DNA from: Thermoanaerobaculia bacterium
GTDB lineage: Bacteria > Acidobacteriota > Thermoanaerobaculia > Gp7-AA8
NCBI GenBank assembly: GCA_035525045.1
Contig: DATLEX010000304.1
Location: 1-60,478, forward strand
Direction of reading: 5' to 3'
Length of the DNA: 60,478 nucleotides
Made by a program: the position numbers and the translations under genes. The stretch's first letter is position 1. The number at the start of each line of letters is the position of its first letter. Under the pieces are notes generated by a model. It was not told where the DNA came from and searched no databases. It worked only from the letters and a program-made list of their open reading frames with translations. Positions 5,101 through 46,998 of this stretch are shown here, in pieces.

Positions 5101-7310
5101 GGCAGGAAAAGGGTCGCGGCTGGTTCGCGACGTCTCTGATGGTGATGCTGCTGGTGTCGTGCGGGCGCTCGGGGAGCGCGGTCGCTCCCCCTCCTGCCCC
5201 CGCGCCACCGGCGATCATCGAGGAGGAGGCACTCCCCGCGAATCTGGCGGAGGCGCGGGCCATGCGCCGGGCGGCGCGGCTCGACCTCTACGAGCGGGGG
5301 CTGCGGCGGATGGCCGAGTCGGAGGACCCCGTGGCGGCCCGCCGAGCGGCGTCTCTGCTGGCGCTCCATCTGTTCGACCAGAGGCGGCTTGACGAGGCCG
5401 TTCCCGCGCTGCAGGCGGCCGCGGCCCGCTCCCCGCTGGTGGCCCCGTTTCTCCAGCTCCGGCTCATCGAGGCGGAGCTCGGGCGGGAGAACGTCGCCGG
5501 GGGCATCGCCGCCGCGGAGGAAGTGATCACCGGCGCGCCGGCCACGACGGCGGCGACCGTGGCCCGGCTGCGGCTGCCGGCCCTGCACGCGGCCGCGGGC
5601 AACGAGGCGGCAGCCGAGGCGACCTTCCAGACGGCGATGAAAGTCGAGATTGACGAGTCGAGCGAGCGAGAGCTGGTCGAGCTCGCCTCTCTCCTCGCCC
5701 AGCACGGCCGGGATGATCTGGCCACGCGCCTGCGCATGCGGCTGCTGCGCGACTACACCGGCGGCCGCGAGACGGAGAGGACCTATGGCCATCTGGTCGC
5801 GATGGCGGACTCGCCGATCGACGCGCTCTCGCTCGAGGAGGCCACGCGCCTGGCCCAGAGCCTGGCCCGGGCGAACCGATACGACCAGGCGCTCGACCTC
5901 CTCGAGCGGATCCGGAAGCGCTTTCCGCAGTCGGCGCAGAGCGAGCTCTATCGAAGCGTCCGCCTCCGGTCGCTGTTCAACTCCCGCAACTATGCGCAGT
6001 TGCTCGCGGAGACGGAGCGGGTCTCGCTGTCCGATCCGGCCCTGCTGCTCCTCCGCGCACGGGCAGCGTGGCGCGACGACCGCCCACAGCAGTTCCTGGC
6101 CGGGCTGGCGGCTGTGGAGAGACGCTTTCCCGGGAGCCGCCAGGCCGTCGAGGCCAAGATCCTTCGCGCCAAGTACTACGTCACCGACGTGATGGACTAC
6201 GCGAAGTCGGTCGCCAACCTCGAGCAGGCCATCCAGGCCGGCGCGGCCGGCAACGACGGCGAGAACGTCTGGACCCTCGGCTGGACCTACGTCCTCTGGG
6301 GGAAGGACGACGAGGCCCTTCGGACGTTCGCGCGGTACCTCCGCACTTACCCCGACGGCGACTACCGCACCAATTCCCTCTTCTGGTCGGCCAAGGTGCA
6401 CGAGCGGAACGAGCGGATCGCTGAGCGCGACGCCAGCCTTCGCCAGCTCATCTCCGAGTACCCGTACAACTACTACGCCTACCGGGCCCGGGAGATCCTC
6501 GGCGAGCCGAGCGTGGCACCGGGCTCGATGGCCAACGGAAACGTGTTCCCCGACATCGACGCGGAACTGGCGGCGGTGCCGAGCGGGCGCCTCGAGAGCG
6601 TCCGGGAGCTGCTGGCCCTCGAGCTGGGGCGCGATGCCGCCCGGGAGATGAAAGCCGTCGCCGCCGCGCACCGGGACAACCTCGGCGCGGCGTTCCTGCT
6701 CGCCGACGTCTACGTCCAGGGCGCCGAACCGTTCCGGGCCACCGGCATCCTGCAGCGCCACTTCCGCCAGTTCGTCCGCCACGGGGGTGAGAACGTCCCG
6801 CGGCGGTTCTGGGAAATCCTCTACCCGCTGAGCTACTGGGAGGCCATCGAGCGGGAGGCTCAACGGCGCGAGCTCGATCCCTATCTCCTGGCCGCGATCA
6901 TCCGTCAGGAAAGCGGGTTCGAGCCGACGGTGGTCTCCAGCGCCGGTGCGGTCGGTCTGATGCAGATCATGCCGAACGAGGCGCCGCGGATCGCCTCGAT
7001 CGCAGGACTCGATGCAATCACGCGCGAGCAGCTCTTCGACCCTCACGAGAACATCGCCGTCGGCGCGGCCGAGTACTCGCAGAAGCTGTCGCGCATGCGG
7101 GCCAACCCCATCCTTGCCATCGCCGCCTACAACGCGGGCGAGGAGGCGGTTGGCAGATGGATTGCCCGGACGCCCATCGGCGACCCGGACTTATTTGTAG
7201 AGTCGATCTCGTACGCCGAGACCCGGCTGTACGTGAAAACGGTGACAAGGAACCGTTTCGAGTACCGGCGGATTTATGAAATGTCGCATGAGTCGCAGCA
7301 GTCGCAGTAG
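5076..7310 (+). CDS. Soluble lytic murein transglycosylase (Slt70-like, helical superhelix N-domain plus SLT domain), probable lipoprotein
   Basis: Lipobox LLVSCG near the N-terminus. SLT catalytic region LLAAIIRQESGFEPTVVSSAGAVGLMQIMP...AYNAGEEAV. GTG start at 5076 (GTG 5097 is also possible) overlaps the GNAT stop. Confidence 0.85.
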   Translation: MDTKGRQVRQEKGRGWFATSLMVMLLVSCGRSGSAVAPPPAPAPPAIIEEEALPANLAEARAMRRAARLDLYERGLRRMAESEDPVAARRAASLLALHLFDQRRLDEAVPALQAAAARSPLVAPFLQLRLIEAELGRENVAGGIAAAEEVITGAPATTAATVARLRLPALHAAAGNEAAAEATFQTAMKVEIDESSERELVELASLLAQHGRDDLATRLRMRLLRDYTGGRETERTYGHLVAMADSPIDALSLEEATRLAQSLARANRYDQALDLLERIRKRFPQSAQSELYRSVRLRSLFNSRNYAQLLAETERVSLSDPALLLLRARAAWRDDRPQQFLAGLAAVERRFPGSRQAVEAKILRAKYYVTDVMDYAKSVANLEQAIQAGAAGNDGENVWTLGWTYVLWGKDDEALRTFARYLRTYPDGDYRTNSLFWSAKVHERNERIAERDASLRQLISEYPYNYYAYRAREILGEPSVAPGSMANGNVFPDIDAELAAVPSGRLESVRELLALELGRDAAREMKAVAAAHRDNLGAAFLLADVYVQGAEPFRATGILQRHFRQFVRHGGENVPRRFWEILYPLSYWEAIEREAQRRELDPYLLAAIIRQESGFEPTVVSSAGAVGLMQIMPNEAPRIASIAGLDAITREQLFDPHENIAVGAAEYSQKLSRMRANPILAIAAYNAGEEAVGRWIARTPIGDPDLFVESISYAETRLYVKTVTRNRFEYRRIYEMSHESQQSQ

Positions 7311-8709: not shown

Positions 8710-12162
<3,453 letters not shown>

Positions 12163-15755: not shown

Positions 15756-15855
15756 GTGTCATCCTGAGCCGGCGCAGCGCGGCGAAGGACCTCCTGCGGC
15801 GATGCGCCAGCGTCGGCAGGGGATCCTTCGCCGTCTTCGCGGCTCAGGATGACAC
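15756..15855. repeat. 100-bp imperfect inverted repeat (GTGTCATCCTGAGCCG...CGGCTCAGGATGACAC) between convergent radC and ilvE. Likely a REP/MITE-like element and bidirectional terminator.
   Basis: Left arm gtgtcatcctgagccggcgcagcgcggcgaaggacctcctgc. The reverse complement of the right arm is gtgtcatcctgagccgcgaagacggcgaaggatcccctgcc. It fills the whole gap between the two stop codons. Confidence 0.8.
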
Positions 15856-25459: not shown

Positions 25460-25536
25460 GCGCCCTTAGCTCAATTGGACAGAGCATCAGACTTCGGATC
25501 TGAGGGTTGGGGGTTCGAGTCCCTCAGGGCGCGCCA
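25460..25536 (+). tRNA. tRNA-Arg (anticodon TCG)
   Basis: GCGCCCT-TA-GCTC-AATTGGACA-GAGC-A-TCAGA-CTTCGGA-TCTGA-GGGTT-GGGGG-TTCGAGT-CCCTC-AGGGCGC-G-CCA. 77 nt. Confidence 0.95.
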
Positions 25537-25779: not shown

Positions 25780-25837
25780 GAACCGCGATCATATCGCCCG
25801 CGCCGGAGGCCCACGCCCGGGAGCCCACGGCACCGCC

Positions 25838-26050
25838 TCAGCACTTTCCGAATGGACATTTGAACACCGGCGGCTCTTCGTTGGCGACGACGTCGGCGAG
25901 AGACTCCGCGCACGTGGCGCGCTGCTCGAGGTCGCAGTGGAGCCCCGCGCACGACTCGAGGTGGAGCAGGATCGACGTCCGGATGTACGGCCAGCTGTGG
26001 TAGCGCTCGACCTCGAGATCGGTACTGCAGGAGGGACAGCGAATCGGCAC
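25838..26050 (-). CDS. Small Cys-rich hypothetical protein (70 aa, possible zinc ribbon)
   Basis: GTG start preceded by GAGGGAG. GC3-rich codon usage typical of the genome. CPSC at the N-terminus, CPFGKC at the C-terminus, and three further Cys. Confidence 0.5.
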   Translation of the reverse strand: MPIRCPSCSTDLEVERYHSWPYIRTSILLHLESCAGLHCDLEQRATCAESLADVVANEEPPVFKCPFGKC

Positions 26051-26284
26051 ATGAACTCCCTCGATCGTCGGAGAGAGAGTTCGGCGACCTGTTCAGGAGA
26101 GTCGCGGGAGGGCCAAAACCCTACCCCCCGCATGAACAAAATGTCCCCTCCCGGGCGTGCTGACGCTTTCTTGACGTCCGACTGACGGCCAGACCGCCGA
26201 AATCGGCCCTGGCGTTCCGAATTCACGCCCTTCCACGTCCCCGGCAACAGAATCTTCCCGCACCCGCCTCTACCTTGTCCATGG

Positions 26285-26530
26285 ATGCCAATCTCTGCCG
26301 ATAACCTCGCGCTGCTCACCACACCGCTCTCCGACCGGGAGATCGGACTCCTCGTCCAGTTGACCGCCGACCCGTACGACCCGAAGGCGAGCAACCTTTT
26401 CGCGTACAGCGGCGCGCGCACGGCCGCCGGGCTGATGACCCGCCTCGCCGCAGCCGAGCCGGAGGAGCGGGCCATCCTCGTCATGGCCATCCGGAAGGCG
26501 ATCGACTCCGCCGGCGACGAGGAAGCCTAG
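26285..26530 (+). CDS. Hypothetical protein (81 aa)
   Basis: Genome-typical GC3-rich codons. No obvious SD. The 3' end overlaps the fabG stop by 4 nt (convergent). Confidence 0.45.
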   Translation: MPISADNLALLTTPLSDREIGLLVQLTADPYDPKASNLFAYSGARTAAGLMTRLAAAEPEERAILVMAIRKAIDSAGDEEA

Positions 26531-37867: not shown

Positions 37868-38543
37868 TGCGCAGCGTGCCCACGCCCTCGATCTCCACCT
37901 CGACGAGGTCGCCCTCCTCCAGCGGCCCGACCCCGGCCGGCGTGCCGGTCAGGATCACGTCGCCGGGAAGGAGCGTCATCACGCCGCTGATGAACTCGAA
38001 CAGCTCGCCGCAGGAGAAGATCATGTCGCGCGTATTGCCATTCTGCCGCGTCTGGCCGTTCACGCGGGTGGTGATCCGGAGCGCCGCGGGGTCGAGGGCG
38101 GTGGCCAGGCAGGGACCGAGAGGACAGAACGTGTCGAACCCCTTGCCGCGCGTGAACTGGACATCCTTCTTCTGCAGGTCGCGCGCGGTGACGTCGTTGG
38201 CGCAGGTGAGGCCGGCCGCGTAGTCGCGCCACTCGCCGGCGGTGACGTGCCGGGCCGGCTTGCCGACGACGATGGCCAGCTCACCCTCGAAGTCGACTCG
38301 CTGCGACTGCGGCGGGCGGACGATGACGCCGTTCGGCGCGAGGAGCGAGCTGGGCGGCTTGAGGAAGAGGATCGGCTCGGGGGGCGGCTCGTTGCCGAGC
38401 TCGCGGGCGTGATCGGCGTAGTTCCGCCCCACGCAGACGATCTTGGTGGGCTGGGCGGGAGGGAGGAGCACGTCGCCGTCGCGGACGAGCTCCTCCGCGG
38501 CCTCCTCGATCTTCCCGTCGCGGATGAACCGGTAGATCCTCAT
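37854..38543 (-). CDS. Fumarylacetoacetate hydrolase (FAH) family protein
   Basis: Start at MRIYRFIRDGK (ATG 38543, SD GGAGG). VCVGRNYADHARELG, DFEGELAIVVGK, GDVILTGTPAGVG. Confidence 0.88.
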   Translation of the reverse strand: MRIYRFIRDGKIEEAAEELVRDGDVLLPPAQPTKIVCVGRNYADHARELGNEPPPEPILFLKPPSSLLAPNGVIVRPPQSQRVDFEGELAIVVGKPARHVTAGEWRDYAAGLTCANDVTARDLQKKDVQFTRGKGFDTFCPLGPCLATALDPAALRITTRVNGQTRQNGNTRDMIFSCGELFEFISGVMTLLPGDVILTGTPAGVGPLEEGDLVEVEIEGVGTLRNVVA

Positions 38544-38580
38544 GCCTCCGCTCCTCATGCCTACGTTATCATTCGCGCCG

Positions 38581-39096
38581 ATGGCACAGACCACGTTGTT
38601 CACGCGCGCGCAGATCGATCAGCGCGTGGCCGAGATGGGGAAGCAGATCAGCGCCGACTTCGCCGGGACGGACCTCATCGCCCTTTGCGTGCTCAAGGGA
38701 GCGGTCTTCTTCCTGACCGACCTGGTGCGCCACATCGAGATGGACGTCCACCTCGACTTCATCCAGATCTCCAGCTACGGCAACCAGCAGTACTCCTCGG
38801 GCGTGGTGACCATCCTCAAGGAGCCGCAGCTCGACATGCGCGGCAGGCACGTGCTGATCGTGGAGGACATCATCGACAGCGGGCTCTCGATGCGGGAGGT
38901 CTTCAACTACATCGAGAGCCGCGGCGCCACGCAGGTCAAGACCGCCACCCTCCTCGACAAACCGAAGGCGCGCCGGGTCCCCTTCAACGCCGACTACGTC
39001 GGCTTCTCCATCGAGCCGCAGTTCGTGGTCGGCTACGGGCTGGACTTCGCCGAAAAGTACCGGAACATCCCGGAGATTCAGGTCCTGTCGGACTGA
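38581..39096 (+). CDS. hpt: Hypoxanthine phosphoribosyltransferase
   Basis: MAQTTLFTRAQIDQRVAEMGKQISADF. PRPP motif VLIVEDIIDSGLSM. LLDKP...ADYVGF...FVVGYGLDF. Confidence 0.92.
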   Translation: MAQTTLFTRAQIDQRVAEMGKQISADFAGTDLIALCVLKGAVFFLTDLVRHIEMDVHLDFIQISSYGNQQYSSGVVTILKEPQLDMRGRHVLIVEDIIDSGLSMREVFNYIESRGATQVKTATLLDKPKARRVPFNADYVGFSIEPQFVVGYGLDFAEKYRNIPEIQVLSD

Positions 39097-39116
39097 CTAG
39101 GGCTCAGGGCCCCTCT

Positions 39117-39200
39117 TCACATCTCCCAGATCACCGGCAGAATCAACGGCCTCCTCCCCATCTCCTTCCGAAAGTGCGTGTAGAGCTGCGCTAGCGCTCG
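39117..39200 (-). pseudogene. 3'-terminal fragment of an RNase J gene (about the last 27 codons plus stop), a duplicate of the rnj 3' end
   Basis: Reads ...RALAQLYTHFRKEMGRRPLILPVIWEM*, versus the intact rnj ...MRATLKRFFRKAMGRRPLILPVIWEM*. The 43-nt stretch 39120-39162 is identical to 42137-42179. The upstream boundary is fuzzy. Confidence 0.6.
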
Positions 39201-39276
39201 CGCGCCGGGGGCATCAGCGAACCAGCGCGCCCGCCCGCAAGTCACGGGTTGCGGGATAATCAGCCCACCTTCACCG

Positions 39277-41922
39277 ATGGATCTTCACGCCGGCGCCCAC
39301 ATGGGACCCTACGAAATTCTCGACTCGCTGGGAGCGGGCGGAATGGGAGAGGTCTATCGGGCCCGAGACACCCGCATCGGCCGTGAGGTTGCGGTCAAGA
39401 TCCTGCCGGACGCCCACCGGCTGGAGAGCGACCGTCTTCACCGCTTCGAGCAGGAGGCCCGCGCCGCCGGGGCCCTCAATCACCCCAACCTTGTGACTAT
39501 CCATGATGTTGGCACCCATGAGGGGACGCCTTACATCGTCATGGAACTGCTCGAGGGCGAGACTCTGCGCGAAAAGATCGCCTCCACGCATCCGCTGCCG
39601 CCGAGAAAAACGATCGACTACGCAGCGCAAATCGCCGCCGGTCTTGCCGCCGCTCATGAGCGAGGCATCATCCACCGCGATCTGAAGCCGGAGAACATCA
39701 TGATCACCGGCGACGGCCGGGTAAAGATCCTCGACTTCGGCCTGGCCAAGCTCCGAGCGCCTGAGGAGGCTTTTCGAACTGATGAGGTGACCGCGCATCG
39801 CGGCACCAGGACTGGAACGGTCCTGGGCACCGCGAGTTACATGTCGCCCGAGCAGGTGCGAGCTGAACAGGTCGATGCGCGCTCCGACATCTTCGCTCTG
39901 GGAACCATCCTTCACGAGATGCTCTCCGGCGCATCCCCATTTCATCGCGGGTCGAGCGCCGACACCACCAGCGCGATCCTGCGGGACGATCCGCCACCGC
40001 TTCCGCCATCGGCCCGGACTCACCCCTCGCTCGTGCGGGTGGTCCATCGCTGCCTGGAAAAAAATCCTGAAGAGCGGTTCCAGTCCGCACGCGATCTCGC
40101 CTTCGATCTGCAGGCCATCGAAGATGAGCTTCGCACCGGCCCCAGGACTCCGATCCGGCGCAGCATGATGCCGCTGCTCGCAAGCGGAGTGGTCGTCGCA
40201 CTGGCAGTCGCGCTCCTGCTGACCCGTCCGCATGGGAGCGAGAAGCCGGCGACCTCGTCGGCCGAGCGCAACATGATCGTGATCTTCCCCTTCGAGAACC
40301 TCGGGGATCCAGCCGACGCCTATTTCGCCGCCGGCATCACCGAAGAGATCACCAGCCGCCTCGCCTCGGTGCAGGACCTCGGCGTGATTTCGCGCACCAC
40401 CGCGGTCGAGTACAGCCGCAAAGGGAAGACTCTGAAGCAGGTGGGTCAGGAGCTCGGCGTCGACTACGTGCTCGAGGGATCGGTGCGCTGGGACAAGCCA
40501 GGCAATCGCGTGCGGGTGACCCCACAGTTGATTCGCGTCTCAGATGACACGCATCTCTGGGCGGACCGATACGACCGGAAACTCGACCAGATCTTCGAGG
40601 TGCAGTCCAATATCGCCGAAGAGGTGGTCAGGCAACTCGATGTGAAACTGCTCGAGCGCGAGAGAAGAGCGCTGGATGCAAGGCCTACCGACAACCTCGA
40701 GGCTTACGAGCTCTATCTTCGCGCCAGGAATGAGAATGTCCCAGAAGAGCGAAGCTTACGAACCAGAGTCGCACTTCTGGAGCAAGCCGTTCGGCTCGAT
40801 TCGAAATTCGCGTTCGCACACGCGGAGCTCGGTTCGACGCACGCGGCTATGTATCACTGGGGTTTTGATCGCGCCTCAGCAAGATTGCAGCAGGCAGATC
40901 GGAGCATCAACGCGGCGCTGGTCATCAACCCGCAATTGCCCGAGGCCCACCGCGCGCGCGGTTTCTACTATTACTGGGGTTTTCTCGACTACCAGAAGGC
41001 TCTCGAGGAGTTCGCCATTGCAAGAGAAAGCCGGCCGAATGACGCACAGTTGCTCAGAGGTATTGCGTTCGTTAACCGCCGGCAAGGACGATTCGAGGAG
41101 GCGGTTCGGAATCTGCTTGCCGCGCAGCGACTCGATCCGCGAAACGCTCAGGCTTTCTCGCAGCTGGGAATTACATACATGCGACTCCGGCGCTTTGAAA
41201 AGGCCGAGCAGATGTTCGTTCGCGCGACTAACATCTCGCCCCACGATACGTCAGCTCATTCCTTGCGTCTTGACAATCTCTGGCACTGGAAAGCTTCGCC
41301 GCAAGAAGGCCGGAGGGCGCTGGAGGGAATGCCGGACACGGGGGACGAACACTCTACCTTCATGTGGTATGAGCAAGAGTTGCTGGAAGGCGGACTCGAC
41401 GGGGCGCTGAAACGGCTCACGTCCAGCAACGTCAAGATTTTCCACTTCGCGCCGGTCGGACGTGACCAGGCCTACCTTCCCAAACAGCTCCTTGTTGGGC
41501 AGACCTATGCGCTCATGGGAGATTCGATCGCAGCACGGGAATCATTCCAAGCGGCACTGCCCGTTCTGGGAAAGGCCGCAGGCGAGAACCCGGAAGATGC
41601 CCGGATCCACAGTGCTCTCGGGCTCGCCTACGCGGGGCTCGGACGCAAGGAGGATGCGATCCGTGAGGGAGAGCTGGCGGTGCAGATGTACCCGCTCAGT
41701 AAGGACGCTCTGTTGGGAACGCGGAGACTTCAGGATTTGGCCCAGATCTATGCGGCTGTCGGCGAGAAGGAAAAGGCGATTGGAGTCCTCGAGAAGCTGC
41801 TATCCATCCCTTCACTCATCTCGACGACAATCCTGAAGGTCGATCCGGCCTGGGACCCGCTGCGCGGCCATCCGCGGTTCGAAGCGCTGCTCCGTGAGGA
41901 GCCGGACGCTGCTGCACAGTAG
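39277..41922 (+). CDS. Ser/Thr protein kinase with one TM segment, a periplasmic/extracytoplasmic region and a TPR-repeat C-terminal domain
   Basis: [22 protein letters not shown]...[71 protein letters not shown] module, then multiple TPR-like repeats. Confidence 0.9.
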
Positions 41923-41936
41923 GAATAAGGAGAGCC

Positions 41937-42122
41937 ATCGAGAGCCGCGGCGCCTCCACCGTCAAGACCGCCACGCTCCTGGACAAGCCCAAGGCCCGCA
42001 AAGTCCCCTTCAACGCCGACTACGTCGGCTTCTCCATCGACCCGCAGTTCGTCGTCGGCTACGGGCTCGATTTCGCGGAGAAGTATCGGAACATCCCGGA
42101 GATTCAGGTGCTCTCGGATTAG
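41937..42122 (+). pseudogene. 3'-terminal fragment of an hpt gene (last 61 codons plus stop), with no start codon or N-terminal domain
   Basis: [61 protein letters not shown], colinear with hpt codons at 38911-39096. It begins 14 nt after the kinase stop. Confidence 0.8.
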
Positions 42123-42133
42123 AGGGCTCGCTT

Positions 42134-43765
42134 CTACATCTCCCAGATCACCGGCAGAATCAACGGCCTCCTCCCCATCGCCTTCCTGAAGAACCTCTTC
42201 AGCGTCGCTCGCATCTTTTCCTGCAGCAGATCGGAATCGCGCAGCTCATCGGGCGCGCTTCCAAGGAACATCCCCACCAGTTGTTTCCGCAGGTCGTCGA
42301 GCAGGTCCTTGCTCGCGTCCACGTGCACCAGGCCGCGGGTGATGATCTCCGGGTCGCGGACCAGCTTCCCCCCCGAGTCGATGGCCACCACCACGATGAC
42401 GAAGCCGTCCTCGGCCAGGTGTTGTCGGTCCCGCACCACCACCTCCGGCACCTCCTCCGCCTCGGCGTCGATGAAGACCTTCCCGTGCGGCACGCGCTCC
42501 TCGAGCACCCGGATCTCCTCCCCCTCGATCTCCGCCACCTGCCCGTTGGTGATCACCGCCCCGTGGGGAATGCCTACGACCCTCGCGATCCGGGCGTGGT
42601 GAATCAGGTGCCGGAGCGTCCCGTGCATCGGCACGAAGAACCTCGGCCGGGTCAGGTTGAGCATCAGCTTCAGCTCTTCCTCGCAGGCATGGCCGGAGAC
42701 GTGAACGTCCGGCTGTTCGTGCGACACGACCTCGGCGCCGCGGCGATAGAGATTGTCGATCAGGTGCGCCACGGCCCGCTCGTTGCCGGGGATGGTCCGG
42801 GCGGAGATCACCACCAGGTCCCCCTGCTCGATGGTGATCTGCTTGTGCTCCCCGACCGCCATGCGCGAGAGCGCCGAGGAGGGCTCACCCTGGGTGCCGG
42901 TGGTCATGATCACGAGCCCGCGGGGATCGAGGTCGGCCGAGGCGGCGCGGGCCTCGCGCGGGAACCGGATGTAGCCCAGGCGCTCGGCGGTCTCGACGTT
43001 GTCGACGAGGGACCGGCCGATGAGCAGCACCTTCCGGTTGAACTTCCGGGCCAGGTCGATCACCTGCTGGACGCGGTGGATGTGCGAGGCGAAGGTGGTG
43101 ACGAGGATCCGGCCGGCGGCGTTGGCGAAGATTCGATCGAGCCCGCCGCCGACCGTCCTCTCCGACGGGCCGTGCCCCGGGACGAGCGCGTTGGTGGAGT
43201 CGCTGATCAGGGCCAGCACGCCGCGCTCGCCCCAGGCAGCGAACCGCGCCAGGTCCGTGGCCTTGCCGTCGATGGGTGTGTGATCGATCTTGAAGTCGCC
43301 GGTGTGGATGATCGTCCCGGCAGGGGTGGTGATGGCGAACCCGAGCGCGTCGACGATGGAGTGCGTGACGCGGATCCCCTCGACGCTGAACGAACCCGCC
43401 TCCACGACGTCGCGGGCCGACATCGGGCGCAGCTCGATCCCGTCGACGCCGAGCTCCTCGAGCTTGTCCTTCACGAATCCGAGCGCCAGCGGTGTCCCGT
43501 ACACGGGCAGGCGAACGCGCTCCACGAGGAAAGGCACGGCGCCGATGTGGTCCTCGTGCCCATGGGTGAGGAAGACGGCCCGGAAGCGGGAGGCGTTCTC
43601 GAAGACGTAGGTCATGTCGGGGATGATCACGTCGACGCCGAGGGTGGCGGCGTCGGGAAACATCATCCCGCAGTCGACGACGATGGCCTCGTTGCCCGCC
43701 TCATAGATCATCAGGTTCATCCCGATCTCGCCGAGGCCTCCGAGCGGGATGATCTTCAGTCTCAT
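42134..43765 (-). CDS. rnj: Ribonuclease J
   Basis: MRLKIIPLGGLGEIGMNLMIYE. Metallo-beta-lactamase motif THGHEDHIG. Beta-CASP and C-terminal domains. 543 aa. Confidence 0.93.
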   Translation of the reverse strand: MRLKIIPLGGLGEIGMNLMIYEAGNEAIVVDCGMMFPDAATLGVDVIIPDMTYVFENASRFRAVFLTHGHEDHIGAVPFLVERVRLPVYGTPLALGFVKDKLEELGVDGIELRPMSARDVVEAGSFSVEGIRVTHSIVDALGFAITTPAGTIIHTGDFKIDHTPIDGKATDLARFAAWGERGVLALISDSTNALVPGHGPSERTVGGGLDRIFANAAGRILVTTFASHIHRVQQVIDLARKFNRKVLLIGRSLVDNVETAERLGYIRFPREARAASADLDPRGLVIMTTGTQGEPSSALSRMAVGEHKQITIEQGDLVVISARTIPGNERAVAHLIDNLYRRGAEVVSHEQPDVHVSGHACEEELKLMLNLTRPRFFVPMHGTLRHLIHHARIARVVGIPHGAVITNGQVAEIEGEEIRVLEERVPHGKVFIDAEAEEVPEVVVRDRQHLAEDGFVIVVVAIDSGGKLVRDPEIITRGLVHVDASKDLLDDLRKQLVGMFLGSAPDELRDSDLLQEKMRATLKRFFRKAMGRRPLILPVIWEM

Positions 43766-45074: not shown

Positions 45075-45103
45075 ATTATAAGGGGTGAGGCGCTACCGTT
45101 AAC
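45075..45103 (-). promoter_or_regulatory. Candidate asnS promoter: perfect -10 TATAAT, with a -35-like TTAACG/GTTAAC supplied by the first heptamer repeat. It implies a (near-)leaderless asnS mRNA.
   Basis: The minus strand reads ...CCCCTTATAATCCGCCGCCTCATG. TATAAT (plus-strand attata, 45075-45080) ends 10 nt before the ATG. There is no SD between them. Confidence 0.4.
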
Positions 45104-45142
45104 CGTTAACCGTTAACCGTTAACCGTTAACCGTTAACCGTT
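45096..45142. repeat. (CCGTTAA)x6.7 perfect heptamer tandem array (six GTTAAC palindromes at 7-bp phasing)
   Basis: Read directly: ccgttaa x6 then ccgtt. Confidence 0.95.
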
Positions 45143-45231: not shown

Positions 45232-45255
45232 CGGTTAACGGTTAACGGTTAACGG
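45232..45255. repeat. (CGGTTAA)x3.4 heptamer array, the exact reverse complement of the 45096-45142 array, abutting the dynamin-like gene stop codon
   Basis: cggttaacggttaacggttaacgg is followed immediately by cta (TAG stop, 45256-45258). It can pair over 24 consecutive bp with the left array. Confidence 0.95.
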
Positions 45256-46998
45256 CTACAACCCCTCCACGGCCCGATGAATCTCCCGCGCCTCGCGCTC
45301 GATGGCGGAGAGCTTGGCGGCGAAGCGGTCGATCTTCTCCGACTCGGCGGCGTAGAAGCGCTGGTAGGGCTCGAAGGAGGCGGTGATGGCTCGGAGCATG
45401 CGGTCGATCTCGGTGGAGGACTCCCGGTCGAGGGCCTCGCGGAGCTGCGTGCGGAGCTCCTCGATCCGGTGCTGGAACTCCGACTTGGCCTTGCTGCGCT
45501 TGTAGGGAAGGATGAGGAAGCTGGCGACCAGGAGCATGGTGGCGGCGGTCAGGCCGGTGACGTCGACGGCCGTGCTGCTGACGGCAGCGGTGACCAGGTA
45601 GCCGAGGCCGAGCGCGCCGGCGCCGAGTCCGAAGGAGTGCAGCACGGCGCGCATGGCGGTGTCGATGATGCGCCGGCTCTCCACGTTGACGTCATACGAG
45701 GCGAGGCGCTGCTCGGCATAGGCGCGCATGCGGGAGTAGATCTCCTCGCGGTTGTAGGCGAACTCGCGGCCCACGCGCCCGACGATCTCGGCATCGCGGG
45801 CGTCGCGGCGCGCTCCCTCGTGGAAGGCGTCGACCGTGCTGTTCCACAACTTCATGTTCTCCCTGACCAGCCAGTCCACCGACTCCTGGATCGTGGTGTC
45901 GACGTTCCCCTTGAAACCCTGGAACACCTGCCGGTCGAACTCCTCCCGGAAGCGGAGGCTGTCGCGCAGGAGCATCACGTGCTGGATCCGCACGTAACGG
46001 TCGAGGAAGTCGACGCCCCGCCGCTCCAGGTCCATCATCAGGTTGTCGATGCGGATGACGAACTGCCGGAAGTTGGCCTGCAGGTCGGCGCGGGCGCGCT
46101 CGAGCTGATCGGTGATCGATGTGATGCGCGCCATGTCCGCGGCCAGGAGCTCGCGCCGCGACTCGATCATGGTCATCTGCCTGCCGGTCAGGCCGGTGAT
46201 GGTGTCGAGCGGCGCCAGGAGCTTGATGCGCACCCTCTCCTTCTCGGACAGGACCGTGAAGATGTAGTCCTCGAGGGCCTGGAAGCGGCTGCGCGTCCAC
46301 TCCCGCGGCGACGCGCCGCCGCTCTTGGCCTCCAGCGCCAGCCTGCCGCTCACCGGGTAGACCACCGGATCGAATCCGAAGATGGCCCGAACGTTCGTGT
46401 GGAGGTATGCGAGCACCTCCTCGACCTCCTGGTCGGTCTTCGTGTCGATCTTGTTGAGCACGAAGACGACCTTCTTCCCCCACTCCCGGATGTACTCGAG
46501 AAAACGCCGCTCCGACTCCGACAGCGGCCTGTCGATGGAGGTGACGAACAGCACCAGGTCGGCGCGCGGGATGTAGTCCTCGGTGATCTCCTGGTGGCGC
46601 TGGACGATCGAGTTCGTGCCGGGCGTATCGACCAGGGTGATGTTGCGCAGAAACTCGACCGGGTAGAACTGCTCGACGACGTAGTCCGAGAGCGGCCGCT
46701 CCGCCGCCGCCTCCCCATGTCGCAGGACGGAGATCCGGTCGTCGACCGGGACGGGCCCCTCGGCCCTCAGCTTCGCGCCGAACAGGGCATTGATCAGCGA
46801 GGACTTCCCGGCGTTGAACTCCCCCACCACCACGATGGTGAAGAGGTCCTCCAGCGTGGCCAGCAGCTCCTCGACGCGACGCCGCTCCTCCGACTGCTCG
46901 CCCTCGAGCGTCTCGCGAAGCTGCACCAGCAGGGCGCTCTCCCGGCGCAGGAGGGCCTGCACCTGCGGATCGACGACCGTGTCGAAGATGCCGGGCAT
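45256..46998 (-). CDS. Bacterial dynamin-like GTPase (BDLP family) with C-terminal hydrophobic paddle/TM region
   Basis: G1 VVVGEFNAGKSSLINALFG, G3 LVDTPGTNS, G4 VLNKIDT. Hydrophobic GLGAGALGLGYLVTAAVSS...TMLLVASFLILPY near the C-terminus. Confidence 0.88.
   Translation of the reverse strand: MPGIFDTVVDPQVQALLRRESALLVQLRETLEGEQSEERRRVEELLATLEDLFTIVVVGEFNAGKSSLINALFGAKLRAEGPVPVDDRISVLRHGEAAAERPLSDYVVEQFYPVEFLRNITLVDTPGTNSIVQRHQEITEDYIPRADLVLFVTSIDRPLSESERRFLEYIREWGKKVVFVLNKIDTKTDQEVEEVLAYLHTNVRAIFGFDPVVYPVSGRLALEAKSGGASPREWTRSRFQALEDYIFTVLSEKERVRIKLLAPLDTITGLTGRQMTMIESRRELLAADMARITSITDQLERARADLQANFRQFVIRIDNLMMDLERRGVDFLDRYVRIQHVMLLRDSLRFREEFDRQVFQGFKGNVDTTIQESVDWLVRENMKLWNSTVDAFHEGARRDARDAEIVGRVGREFAYNREEIYSRMRAYAEQRLASYDVNVESRRIIDTAMRAVLHSFGLGAGALGLGYLVTAAVSSTAVDVTGLTAATMLLVASFLILPYKRSKAKSEFQHRIEELRTQLREALDRESSTEIDRMLRAITASFEPYQRFYAAESEKIDRFAAKLSAIEREAREIHRAVEGL

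Follow-up and report, generated by a model that had tools for sequence, protein, structure and literature searches.

How did a gene for a serine/threonine (Ser/Thr) protein kinase come to lie between two copies of the same convergent gene junction? The question is raised by a 60,478 nt stretch of DNA (hereafter the window) from contig DATLEX010000304.1 of an uncultured Thermoanaerobaculia bacterium (Acidobacteriota), which resembles a metagenome-assembled contig. Here the segment comprising the 3′ end of hpt (hypoxanthine phosphoribosyltransferase), a short spacer and the 3′ end of rnj (ribonuclease J) occurs twice in direct orientation, and the kinase gene occupies the interval between the two occurrences. 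A preliminary description of this DNA had attributed the arrangement to a Campbell-type integration, in which a circle carrying a foreign junction and the kinase gene entered the resident junction by a single crossover. Our analysis gives an even chance to the reading that the kinase was gained by homologous recombination with DNA from a diverged relative and that neither an integrase nor a transposase took part. Two features of the repeat carry this reading: the copies of the hpt tail differ in the manner of functional alleles, and a block at the rnj end is identical in both.

The locus was compared with 80 species-level loci from relatives, gathered by an RNase J genome scan and all derived from metagenome-assembled genomes (MAGs); individual loci are cited by number where needed. 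The top RNase J proteins of this set are 87–88% identical in amino acid sequence to that of the window, with none above 88%, and hpt products of relatives are 76–87% identical to the window product. Gene identities were assigned with Pfam, nonsynonymous and synonymous divergence (dN and dS, with omega as their ratio) were calculated by the Nei–Gojobori method, and a tree of the 186 nt hpt tails was built by neighbour joining (NJ). The flanks are collinear with the relatives for more than 6 kb on each side, with pcnB-like, FAA hydrolase and hpt genes to the left and rnj, asnS and a dynamin-like GTPase gene to the right. The features of the locus are the following.

38542 to 39096, plus strand: hpt, intact (Pfam Pribosyltran, E 1e-29; GC content at third codon positions, GC3, 0.935).
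38910 to 39173: left junction copy, made of the hpt tail, a 20 nt spacer and an rnj remnant (local alignment, repeat search, self-blastn).
38911 to 39096, plus strand: hpt part of the left copy, the final 62 codons (alignment of the repeat copies).
39097 to 39116: spacer of the left copy, 20 nt.
39117 to 39173, minus strand: rnj pseudo-fragment of 18 codons (FRKEMGRRPLILPVIWEM, then a stop); the residues 5′ of FRK, invariant in the 80 relatives, are replaced.
Continuing to about 39195, minus strand: possible degraded extension of the rnj pseudo-fragment, of marginal homology.
39119 to 39162, equal to 42136 to 42179: identical 44 nt block (exact run), the probable exchange point or conversion tract.
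39174 to 39227: 54 nt separating the rnj remnant from the kinase-locus homology, which in the comparison with locus L081 begins at 39228.
39228 to 41934, plus strand: kinase gene unit, with a promoter-like segment (TTGCGGGATAATCA), the coding sequence and a native downstream stretch of 12 nt (blastn to L081).
39277 to 41922, plus strand: Ser/Thr kinase/TPR coding sequence, 881 amino acids, with a kinase domain, a predicted transmembrane segment and TPR repeats (Pfam Pkinase, E 3e-53, plus TPR families).
41936 to 42190: right junction copy, made of an hpt pseudo-tail, an 11 nt spacer and the 3′ end of the intact rnj gene (alignment, repeat search).
41937 to 42122, plus strand: headless hpt pseudo-tail, 61 codons plus TAG (alignment to hpt).
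42123 to 42133: spacer of the right copy, 11 nt.
42134 to 43765, minus strand: rnj, intact (Pfam RNase_J_b_CASP, RNase_J_C and Lactamase_B).

Local alignment, a repeat search and self-blastn all recover the direct repeat formed by the left copy (38910 to 39172/3) and the right copy (41936 to 42190). The two are 85.8% identical over 260 nt (self-blastn, E 1e-80) and constitute the sole long dispersed repeat of the window, so that the duplication described earlier is borne out, as is the 14 nt gap between the kinase stop codon and the right copy (41922 to 41936/7). The hand counts made then for the hpt parts also proved exact. Specifically, 25 mismatches occur in 186 nt, distributed 3/3/19 over the three codon positions, and they comprise 14 synonymous codon changes, four replacements (T>S, Q>T, R>K and E>D) and a TGA versus a TAG stop codon. 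When the stop is set aside, 23 coding differences are left between the tails, 18 of them at third positions.

This distribution corresponds to a dS of 0.54, a dN of 0.044 and an omega of 0.08. We simulated divergence in situ by allowing the functional copy to accept synonymous changes only while the other copy drifted; none of 5000 runs ended with four or fewer amino acid differences, and the mean was 13.4. Each of the four residues particular to the right copy (S, T, K and D) is present in the functional hpt of relatives. Furthermore, the right tail carries no indel in its 186 nt and its stop codon is in register. Translation of this tail was considered, including by frameshift from the kinase gene; upstream, its frame stays open for no more than 13 codons and contains no start codon. 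Because an untranslatable tail has been kept without an indel and with its stop in register, it must have belonged to a working hpt gene until recently. Judged from codon-level comparison, these results support the earlier proposal that the right hpt tail is a remnant of another, functional hpt allele, as opposed to a fresh in-situ copy in neutral decay.

The rnj end of the repeat has a different character. A block of 44 nt, and not 43 as first counted, is identical in the two copies (39119 to 39162 and 42136 to 42179) and includes 42 coding nt of rnj. Relatives deviate from this block by 3 to more than 7 nt, and among pairs of relatives whose hpt tails are 84–89% identical only 1 of 322 shares an identical block, the median difference being 7. 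The copies diverge on both sides of the block, by about 12% on the hpt side and at 3 of 12 nt (two of the changes synonymous) in FRKE on the other side, where these 12 nt are the only informative ones. Such a mosaic of diverged, identical and diverged sequence fits the footprint to be expected where two alleles have undergone exchange or gene conversion, and we regard the block as the probable site of that event.

Beyond the block, the rnj remnant is securely homologous across 18 codons only (39117 to 39173). Past 39173 it reads LYTH at positions where all 80 relatives have LKR[YF], and a homology test beyond FRK was marginal (P 0.02–0.12, with 12 of 21 ungapped matches). The replacement of invariant residues and the marginal homology therefore indicate that the copied junction ends near 39173, with no sharply diverged functional rnj allele beyond it, which corrects the earlier view of this fragment. 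No other rnj-tail fragment, and hence no other occupied or empty site at an rnj end, was found in the 80 relatives. The GC3 of the intact rnj gene dips from about 0.95 to 0.70–0.80 over its last ~60 codons (codons ~481 to 530, 42140 to 42330), where several AGG, TTG and ATT codons occur. Examined as a possible recombination boundary, this dip is within the range of the relatives, of which 16 of 77 have an equal drop.

The gene order of relatives bears on the history of the junction itself. In all 61 relatives with both genes, and in three of three further close contigs, uppP/BacA lies directly downstream of rnj, between rnj and hpt (for example L002:7633–8463 and L083:7632–8456, as compared with 39097–42133 of the window). 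The rnj–hpt interval of these relatives ranges from 838 to 5486 nt and always contains uppP, at times with extra genes such as a GDSL lipase gene in L084. The window contains no uppP, either at this locus or anywhere else in its 60 kb, and the kinase gene holds the uppP position on the opposite strand. Since uppP intervenes in all relatives, the direct adjacency of the hpt and rnj stop codons must be a derived state, and the earlier expectation that relatives would show hpt and rnj adjacent without the kinase fails.

The two copies share further traits. Both encode an F>L replacement (TLLDKP) that is absent from all 59 relatives compared, and both spacers contain the 7 nt motif AGGGCTC, which is absent from the intergenic regions of relatives. 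Together with the uppP-less adjacency common to both, these traits indicate that the junction copies have one origin, after the loss of uppP. A single event that removed uppP and at the same time created the duplication, whether by gapped ends-in recombination or through ligation-made junctions, was considered and rejected, since uppP is missing from both copies and the two spacers are homologous to each other.

The cargo consists of one open reading frame (ORF) that carries Pkinase and TPR domains only. It belongs to a family that is very large in Acidobacteriota and is built of kinase, transmembrane, TolB-like and TPR regions; its closest homologues are 67–68% identical in amino acid sequence and lie in unrelated contexts, such as beside lpxD in L081. 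Homology to L081 at the nucleotide level covers 39228 to 41934, with the promoter-like TTGCGGGATAATCA conserved just 5′ of the ATG and 12 nt conserved past the stop, and the insert is therefore a self-contained gene unit trimmed very near its ends. The kinase gene has a GC3 of 0.72, close to the 0.725–0.73 of homologues in other genomes, as against 0.82–0.95 for all but one of the other sizeable ORFs of the window and 0.92 for the right hpt tail. From this contrast the kinase looks recently foreign, and appears to have accompanied a junction copy from a genome of host-like composition.

No integrase, transposase or other mobility domain was detected by Pfam in the insert or in the neighbouring ORFs tested, the neighbours being housekeeping genes. 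The ends of the insert are not paired by terminal inverted repeats, the insert holds no tRNA, Rfam or other structured element and no attC, and a promoter and terminator scan returned nothing relevant at the junctions. DNA searches of plasmid, phage and viral collections gave generic kinase-domain similarity only. The duplication of 255–264 bp also differs from the 2–15 bp produced by insertion sequences (ISs) and transposons. On this point the preliminary description, which had proposed a route with neither integrase nor IS, is in agreement with our results.

In the L081 locus, a 215 nt direct repeat (6179–6393 and 10943–11157, 95% identical) surrounds the kinase gene and a gene of the beta-lactamase family. 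Each unit joins 45 nt from the lpxD 5′ end, via the intergenic region, to the initial 104 nt of the kinase gene; the second unit runs up to the end of the contig. This repeat is probably a tandem segmental duplication of the kinase unit.

The topology of the window locus is that of a circular permutation, in which one junction copy is joined by its right end to the left end of the kinase unit, and the other by its left end to the right end of that unit. As an incoming form, only a circle of junction plus kinase or a tandem junction–kinase–junction array gives this topology. The donor sequence would have been a copy of about 255 bp of the junction between the hpt and rnj stops, from a diverged relative with the same direct adjacency, and already joined to the kinase gene. 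In a uppP-less relative, an illegitimate event would have set the kinase unit between duplicated junction copies, a kind of duplication that is evidently frequent here; the primary joining of 39228–41934 would lie in the regions of hpt codon 124 and rnj codon 526. Soon after, this segment would have recombined in a RecA-type reaction with the resident junction of the present lineage, entering either as a popped-out circle by one crossover (the Campbell type) or as linear junction–kinase–junction DNA by two exchanges with the one resident junction. Strand exchange in or around the 44 nt block at the rnj 3′ end would then yield, in order, the resident hpt, its spacer, the block, the imported rnj remnant, the kinase gene, the imported hpt remnant with its spacer, the block again and the resident rnj. 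Both housekeeping genes would thus be left intact, with two pseudo-tails remaining. The sequence itself shows the repeat with its mosaic divergence, the derivation of the hpt remnant from a functional allele, the foreign composition of the kinase gene and the lack of a recombinase or transposon signature; which genome acted as donor, whether its DNA arrived as a circle or in linear form, and the primary illegitimate joining are inferred. One of its steps has an experimental parallel in E. coli, where small non-replicative linear DNA was shown to be circularised and then integrated by a recA-dependent single crossover (PMC3240628).

What stood of the Campbell-type proposal is thus a homologous, integrase-free exchange with a foreign allele. 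The single crossover of a circle did not stand as the particular route, being equalled by a linear double exchange or by an import with one homologous anchor (see below), and the mechanism needs a prior illegitimate joining of kinase and junction that had not been considered.

Several results weigh against gene gain by homologous recombination at this junction. The bare hpt/rnj junction expected as an empty site occurs in none of the 61 relatives, in none of the three additional contigs, and was not found by the metagenome scans. Two such scans were run over 241 million records. A degenerate pattern for rnj-stop/hpt-stop adjacency gave no metagenome match, though both window copies were detected by it, and a degenerate pattern for the 44 nt block likewise gave none and recruited no close relative. 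The genomes, contigs and metagenomes searched thus document no empty recipient site and no donor. Among 5.8 billion proteins nothing is nearer to the window rnj product than 87–88% amino acid identity. A search of the protein collection with the 61 amino acid right tail gave a best match of 90% identity and no donor, and brought up hpt-tail fragments elsewhere. The phylogeny of the 186 nt tails, proposed earlier as a means to name the foreign copy, cannot do so: in the NJ tree the left and right tails are sisters with a bootstrap of 49%, synonymous sites are effectively saturated, and the dS falls within the between-genera range. The divergence of the rnj remnant jumps from 5% to about 43% at 39173, which is not what a clean functional donor rnj copy predicts. 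Finally, the scheme leaves the first joining of the kinase to the donor junction unexplained.

Some of these difficulties would be eased if only one end of the incoming DNA had been homologous. In an import by homology-facilitated illegitimate recombination, which we consider unlikely, a linear fragment of kinase, hpt tail, spacer and rnj would come from a donor whose kinase gene sits in hpt codon 124; it would pair on the rnj side and form an illegitimate joint in the resident rnj gene, 18 codons from its stop. The final topology is the same, with neither a circle nor a duplication in the donor required. Such an event accounts better for the abrupt end of the rnj remnant near 39173, with unrelated sequence after it. 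It also explains why no more than 12 nt of native downstream sequence separate the kinase gene from the hpt tail that the unit abuts. Naturally transformable bacteria and E. coli conjugation both provide documented examples (PMC3240628). The GC3 drop in rnj could mark the imported tract, but a dip as large is ordinary, as the 16 of 77 relatives indicate. In addition, this import needs a donor with a disrupted hpt gene together with the rare hpt/rnj adjacency in both genomes, and no clear microhomology is evident at either joint (homology ends near 39173 and at 41935/6). A scenario of assembly, to which we give a somewhat lower probability still, invokes two populations that each carry a homogenised junction–kinase–junction array, with the contig switching from one to the other inside the kinase gene or the 44 nt block. 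Concerted evolution followed by such a chimera would reproduce the omega of about 0.08. The metagenomic character of the window and of all the relatives is in keeping with it; the window proteins are on a single contig in the protein collection, exact-sequence look-ups of the hpt and kinase products returned no second contig, and neither these look-ups nor the metagenome scans found an independent assembly of the locus. However, a switch requires an identical stretch at least as long as the assembler k-mer between genomes that differ by about 12%, and composition and synteny are uniform on both sides. Moreover, the joints between rnj remnant and kinase and between kinase and hpt tail must be real, so that the scar would exist in any case.

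Site-specific integration is, in our estimate, very unlikely. Elements that target gene 3′ ends typically carry a core at the gene end, reconstitute the gene and leave the displaced tail behind. An integrase-less, CIME-like element at the rnj 3′ end would take the 44 nt block as its att core, gain the donor hpt tail and spacer as host DNA through an aberrant excision in a previous host, and rely on an integrase supplied in trans. An exact 44 nt core at the 3′ end of a conserved gene, flanked by diverged sequence, and a reconstituted gene with its displaced tail remaining are what such an element would leave. Against it stand the lack of a recombinase in the insert and the neighbouring ORFs tested and a cargo that would amount to one gene. 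Also, the 88% homology runs on for 186 nt plus the spacer (about 200 nt) past the core, which is the behaviour of a homologous substrate and not of an attP arm, and no other rnj-end site or rnj-tail fragment occurs in the 80 relatives. Divergence purely in situ, whether the junction had been duplicated in tandem or an insertion had produced a long target duplication, is the least probable of these accounts and is effectively refuted as a sole explanation. Some relatives do have hpt tails duplicated in tandem in situ (L070 and L084/L085, with frameshifts and replacements of conserved residues), but the omega of 0.08, the simulations and the absence of indels from the 186 nt pseudo-tail all argue against this route for the window, and the identity of the block is discordant with the divergence of the tails (1 of 322 pairs). 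In-situ duplication likely remains the primary event in the donor lineage.

Fragments of the hpt tail recur in other members of the class. In L070 (8480–9000), three tandem units, each consisting of an hpt tail and a palindromic element, lie downstream of hpt; the independent assemblies L084 (1–340) and L085 (1–320) carry two or three units of this kind, in which the palindrome is a different, REPIN-like one. These arrays repeat the last 14–42 hpt codons next to unrelated palindromes, and the extra copies carry frameshifts and replacements of conserved residues. In L084, an IS200-like Y1 transposase gene (6447–6860) is located 6 kb from the array. The 1 kb contig L086 contains a 34-codon hpt tail (743–907) whose protein sequence is perfectly conserved. 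Before this tail lie unrelated sequence and a 215 amino acid gene that fits no clear family, and after it come a hairpin and the end of uppP; the tail may be a second case of an insert upstream of a displaced hpt tail. The copies in L070 and L084/L085 decay as in-situ duplicates should, which sharpens the contrast with the right tail of the window. The recurrence of hpt-tail fragments therefore marks the hpt 3′ junction as a hotspot of rearrangement.

A number of other features of the window were recorded in passing. The interval from asnS to the dynamin-like GTPase gene contains 6.9 copies of the heptamer ACCGTTA, with an inverted partner about 100 nt away (45095–45142 and 45232–45258); the same heptamer repeat follows the hpt stop in L002, and other relatives have different short tandem repeats, such as GAAAATT, after rnj. 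The only other compositional outlier of the window is an ORF of 233 amino acids on the minus strand (25789–26490; GC3 0.72, no Pfam match), which adjoins tRNA-Arg(TCG) at 25460–25536 and may be the remnant of a small island. Positions 1–777 contain repeats with a period of about 289 nt, 72–75% identical, at the start of a 1145 amino acid ORF that runs off the edge; they probably encode a repeated protein domain. An intergenic imperfect palindrome of 100 nt, 80% self-complementary, is found at 15756–15855.

If gene gain by homologous recombination is correct, the locus would preserve a clean natural footprint of gene gain without mobile-element machinery, in which host homologous recombination used about 255 bp of homeologous sequence to move a single regulatory gene between diverged Acidobacteriota. 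The Ser/Thr kinase repertoires of these soil bacteria could then expand in part through such transfers, and tight convergent gene ends could serve as tolerated insertion points, with the duplicated tails keeping both genes intact. A more speculative extension, which we think improbable, is that the junction copy and kinase together (3 kb) form a recombinase-free mobile cassette that uses a conserved convergent-gene junction as its attachment site; it would pop out as a circle through the flanking repeats and enter the homologous junction of related genomes with host RecA alone. In that case, such cassettes would have a general landing pad in the hpt 3′ junction of Thermoanaerobaculia, a site where tail duplications recur in at least four other lineages. 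The locus also draws attention to an rnj–uppP pair that is otherwise invariant and from which uppP has here been lost or moved elsewhere. The value of the case is limited, since it concerns a single locus of an unsampled lineage for which no donor or empty site was found.

Several known systems resemble parts of this arrangement. Campbell-type additive integration is known from suicide vectors. As in that process, direct repeats of the homology segment flank the insert, each repeat would be a hybrid of incoming and resident alleles, no recombinase is encoded by the element, and pop-out through the repeats is possible. The differences are that the event here would be natural, with about 255 bp of homology between sequences some 12% diverged, a perfect stretch of 44 nt and a hypothetical circle, and that no donor, and no empty site of the kind expected, was found among relatives. 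Islands that target tRNA genes or other gene 3′ ends and bring a replacement 3′ end, and integrase-less CIMEs, share with the locus an intact target, a pseudo-3′ end at the far side and an identical core at both ends. The locus differs in that it has no integrase, its homology extends far past the core, its cargo is one gene and reuse of the site is not seen in the relatives. Tandem duplications have been linked to REP and other palindromic elements at gene ends. The arrays of hpt tail and palindrome in L070 and L084/L085 resemble these, whereas the window copies do not: the copies in the arrays are adjacent, span 14–42 codons and are visibly decaying, and those of the window lie 3 kb from each other with a foreign gene in between and have diverged in the manner of two functional alleles.

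The minimal mobile elements of Neisseria are small cassettes located between conserved genes and swapped by transformation and homologous recombination, in the account given in PMC1797815 (citing Saunders and Snyder, 2002). Like those elements as outlined there, the locus places one to three genes between housekeeping genes, has a site content that varies (uppP with or without extra genes versus the kinase) and carries no mobility genes. By the same account those cassettes are exchanged by double crossover with no duplication, unlike the duplicated and diverged flanking gene ends seen here. Homology-facilitated illegitimate recombination (de Vries and Wackernagel, 2002; Prudhomme et al., 2002; both as summarised in PMC3240628) would have in common with the locus one homologous anchor and one illegitimate joint, along with abrupt breakpoints within coding sequence; it differs in that microhomology is not evident at this locus and that both ends of the insert meet junction copies. 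As a gene gain by homologous recombination, the locus is thus an instance of an already known kind of process and not an unprecedented one.

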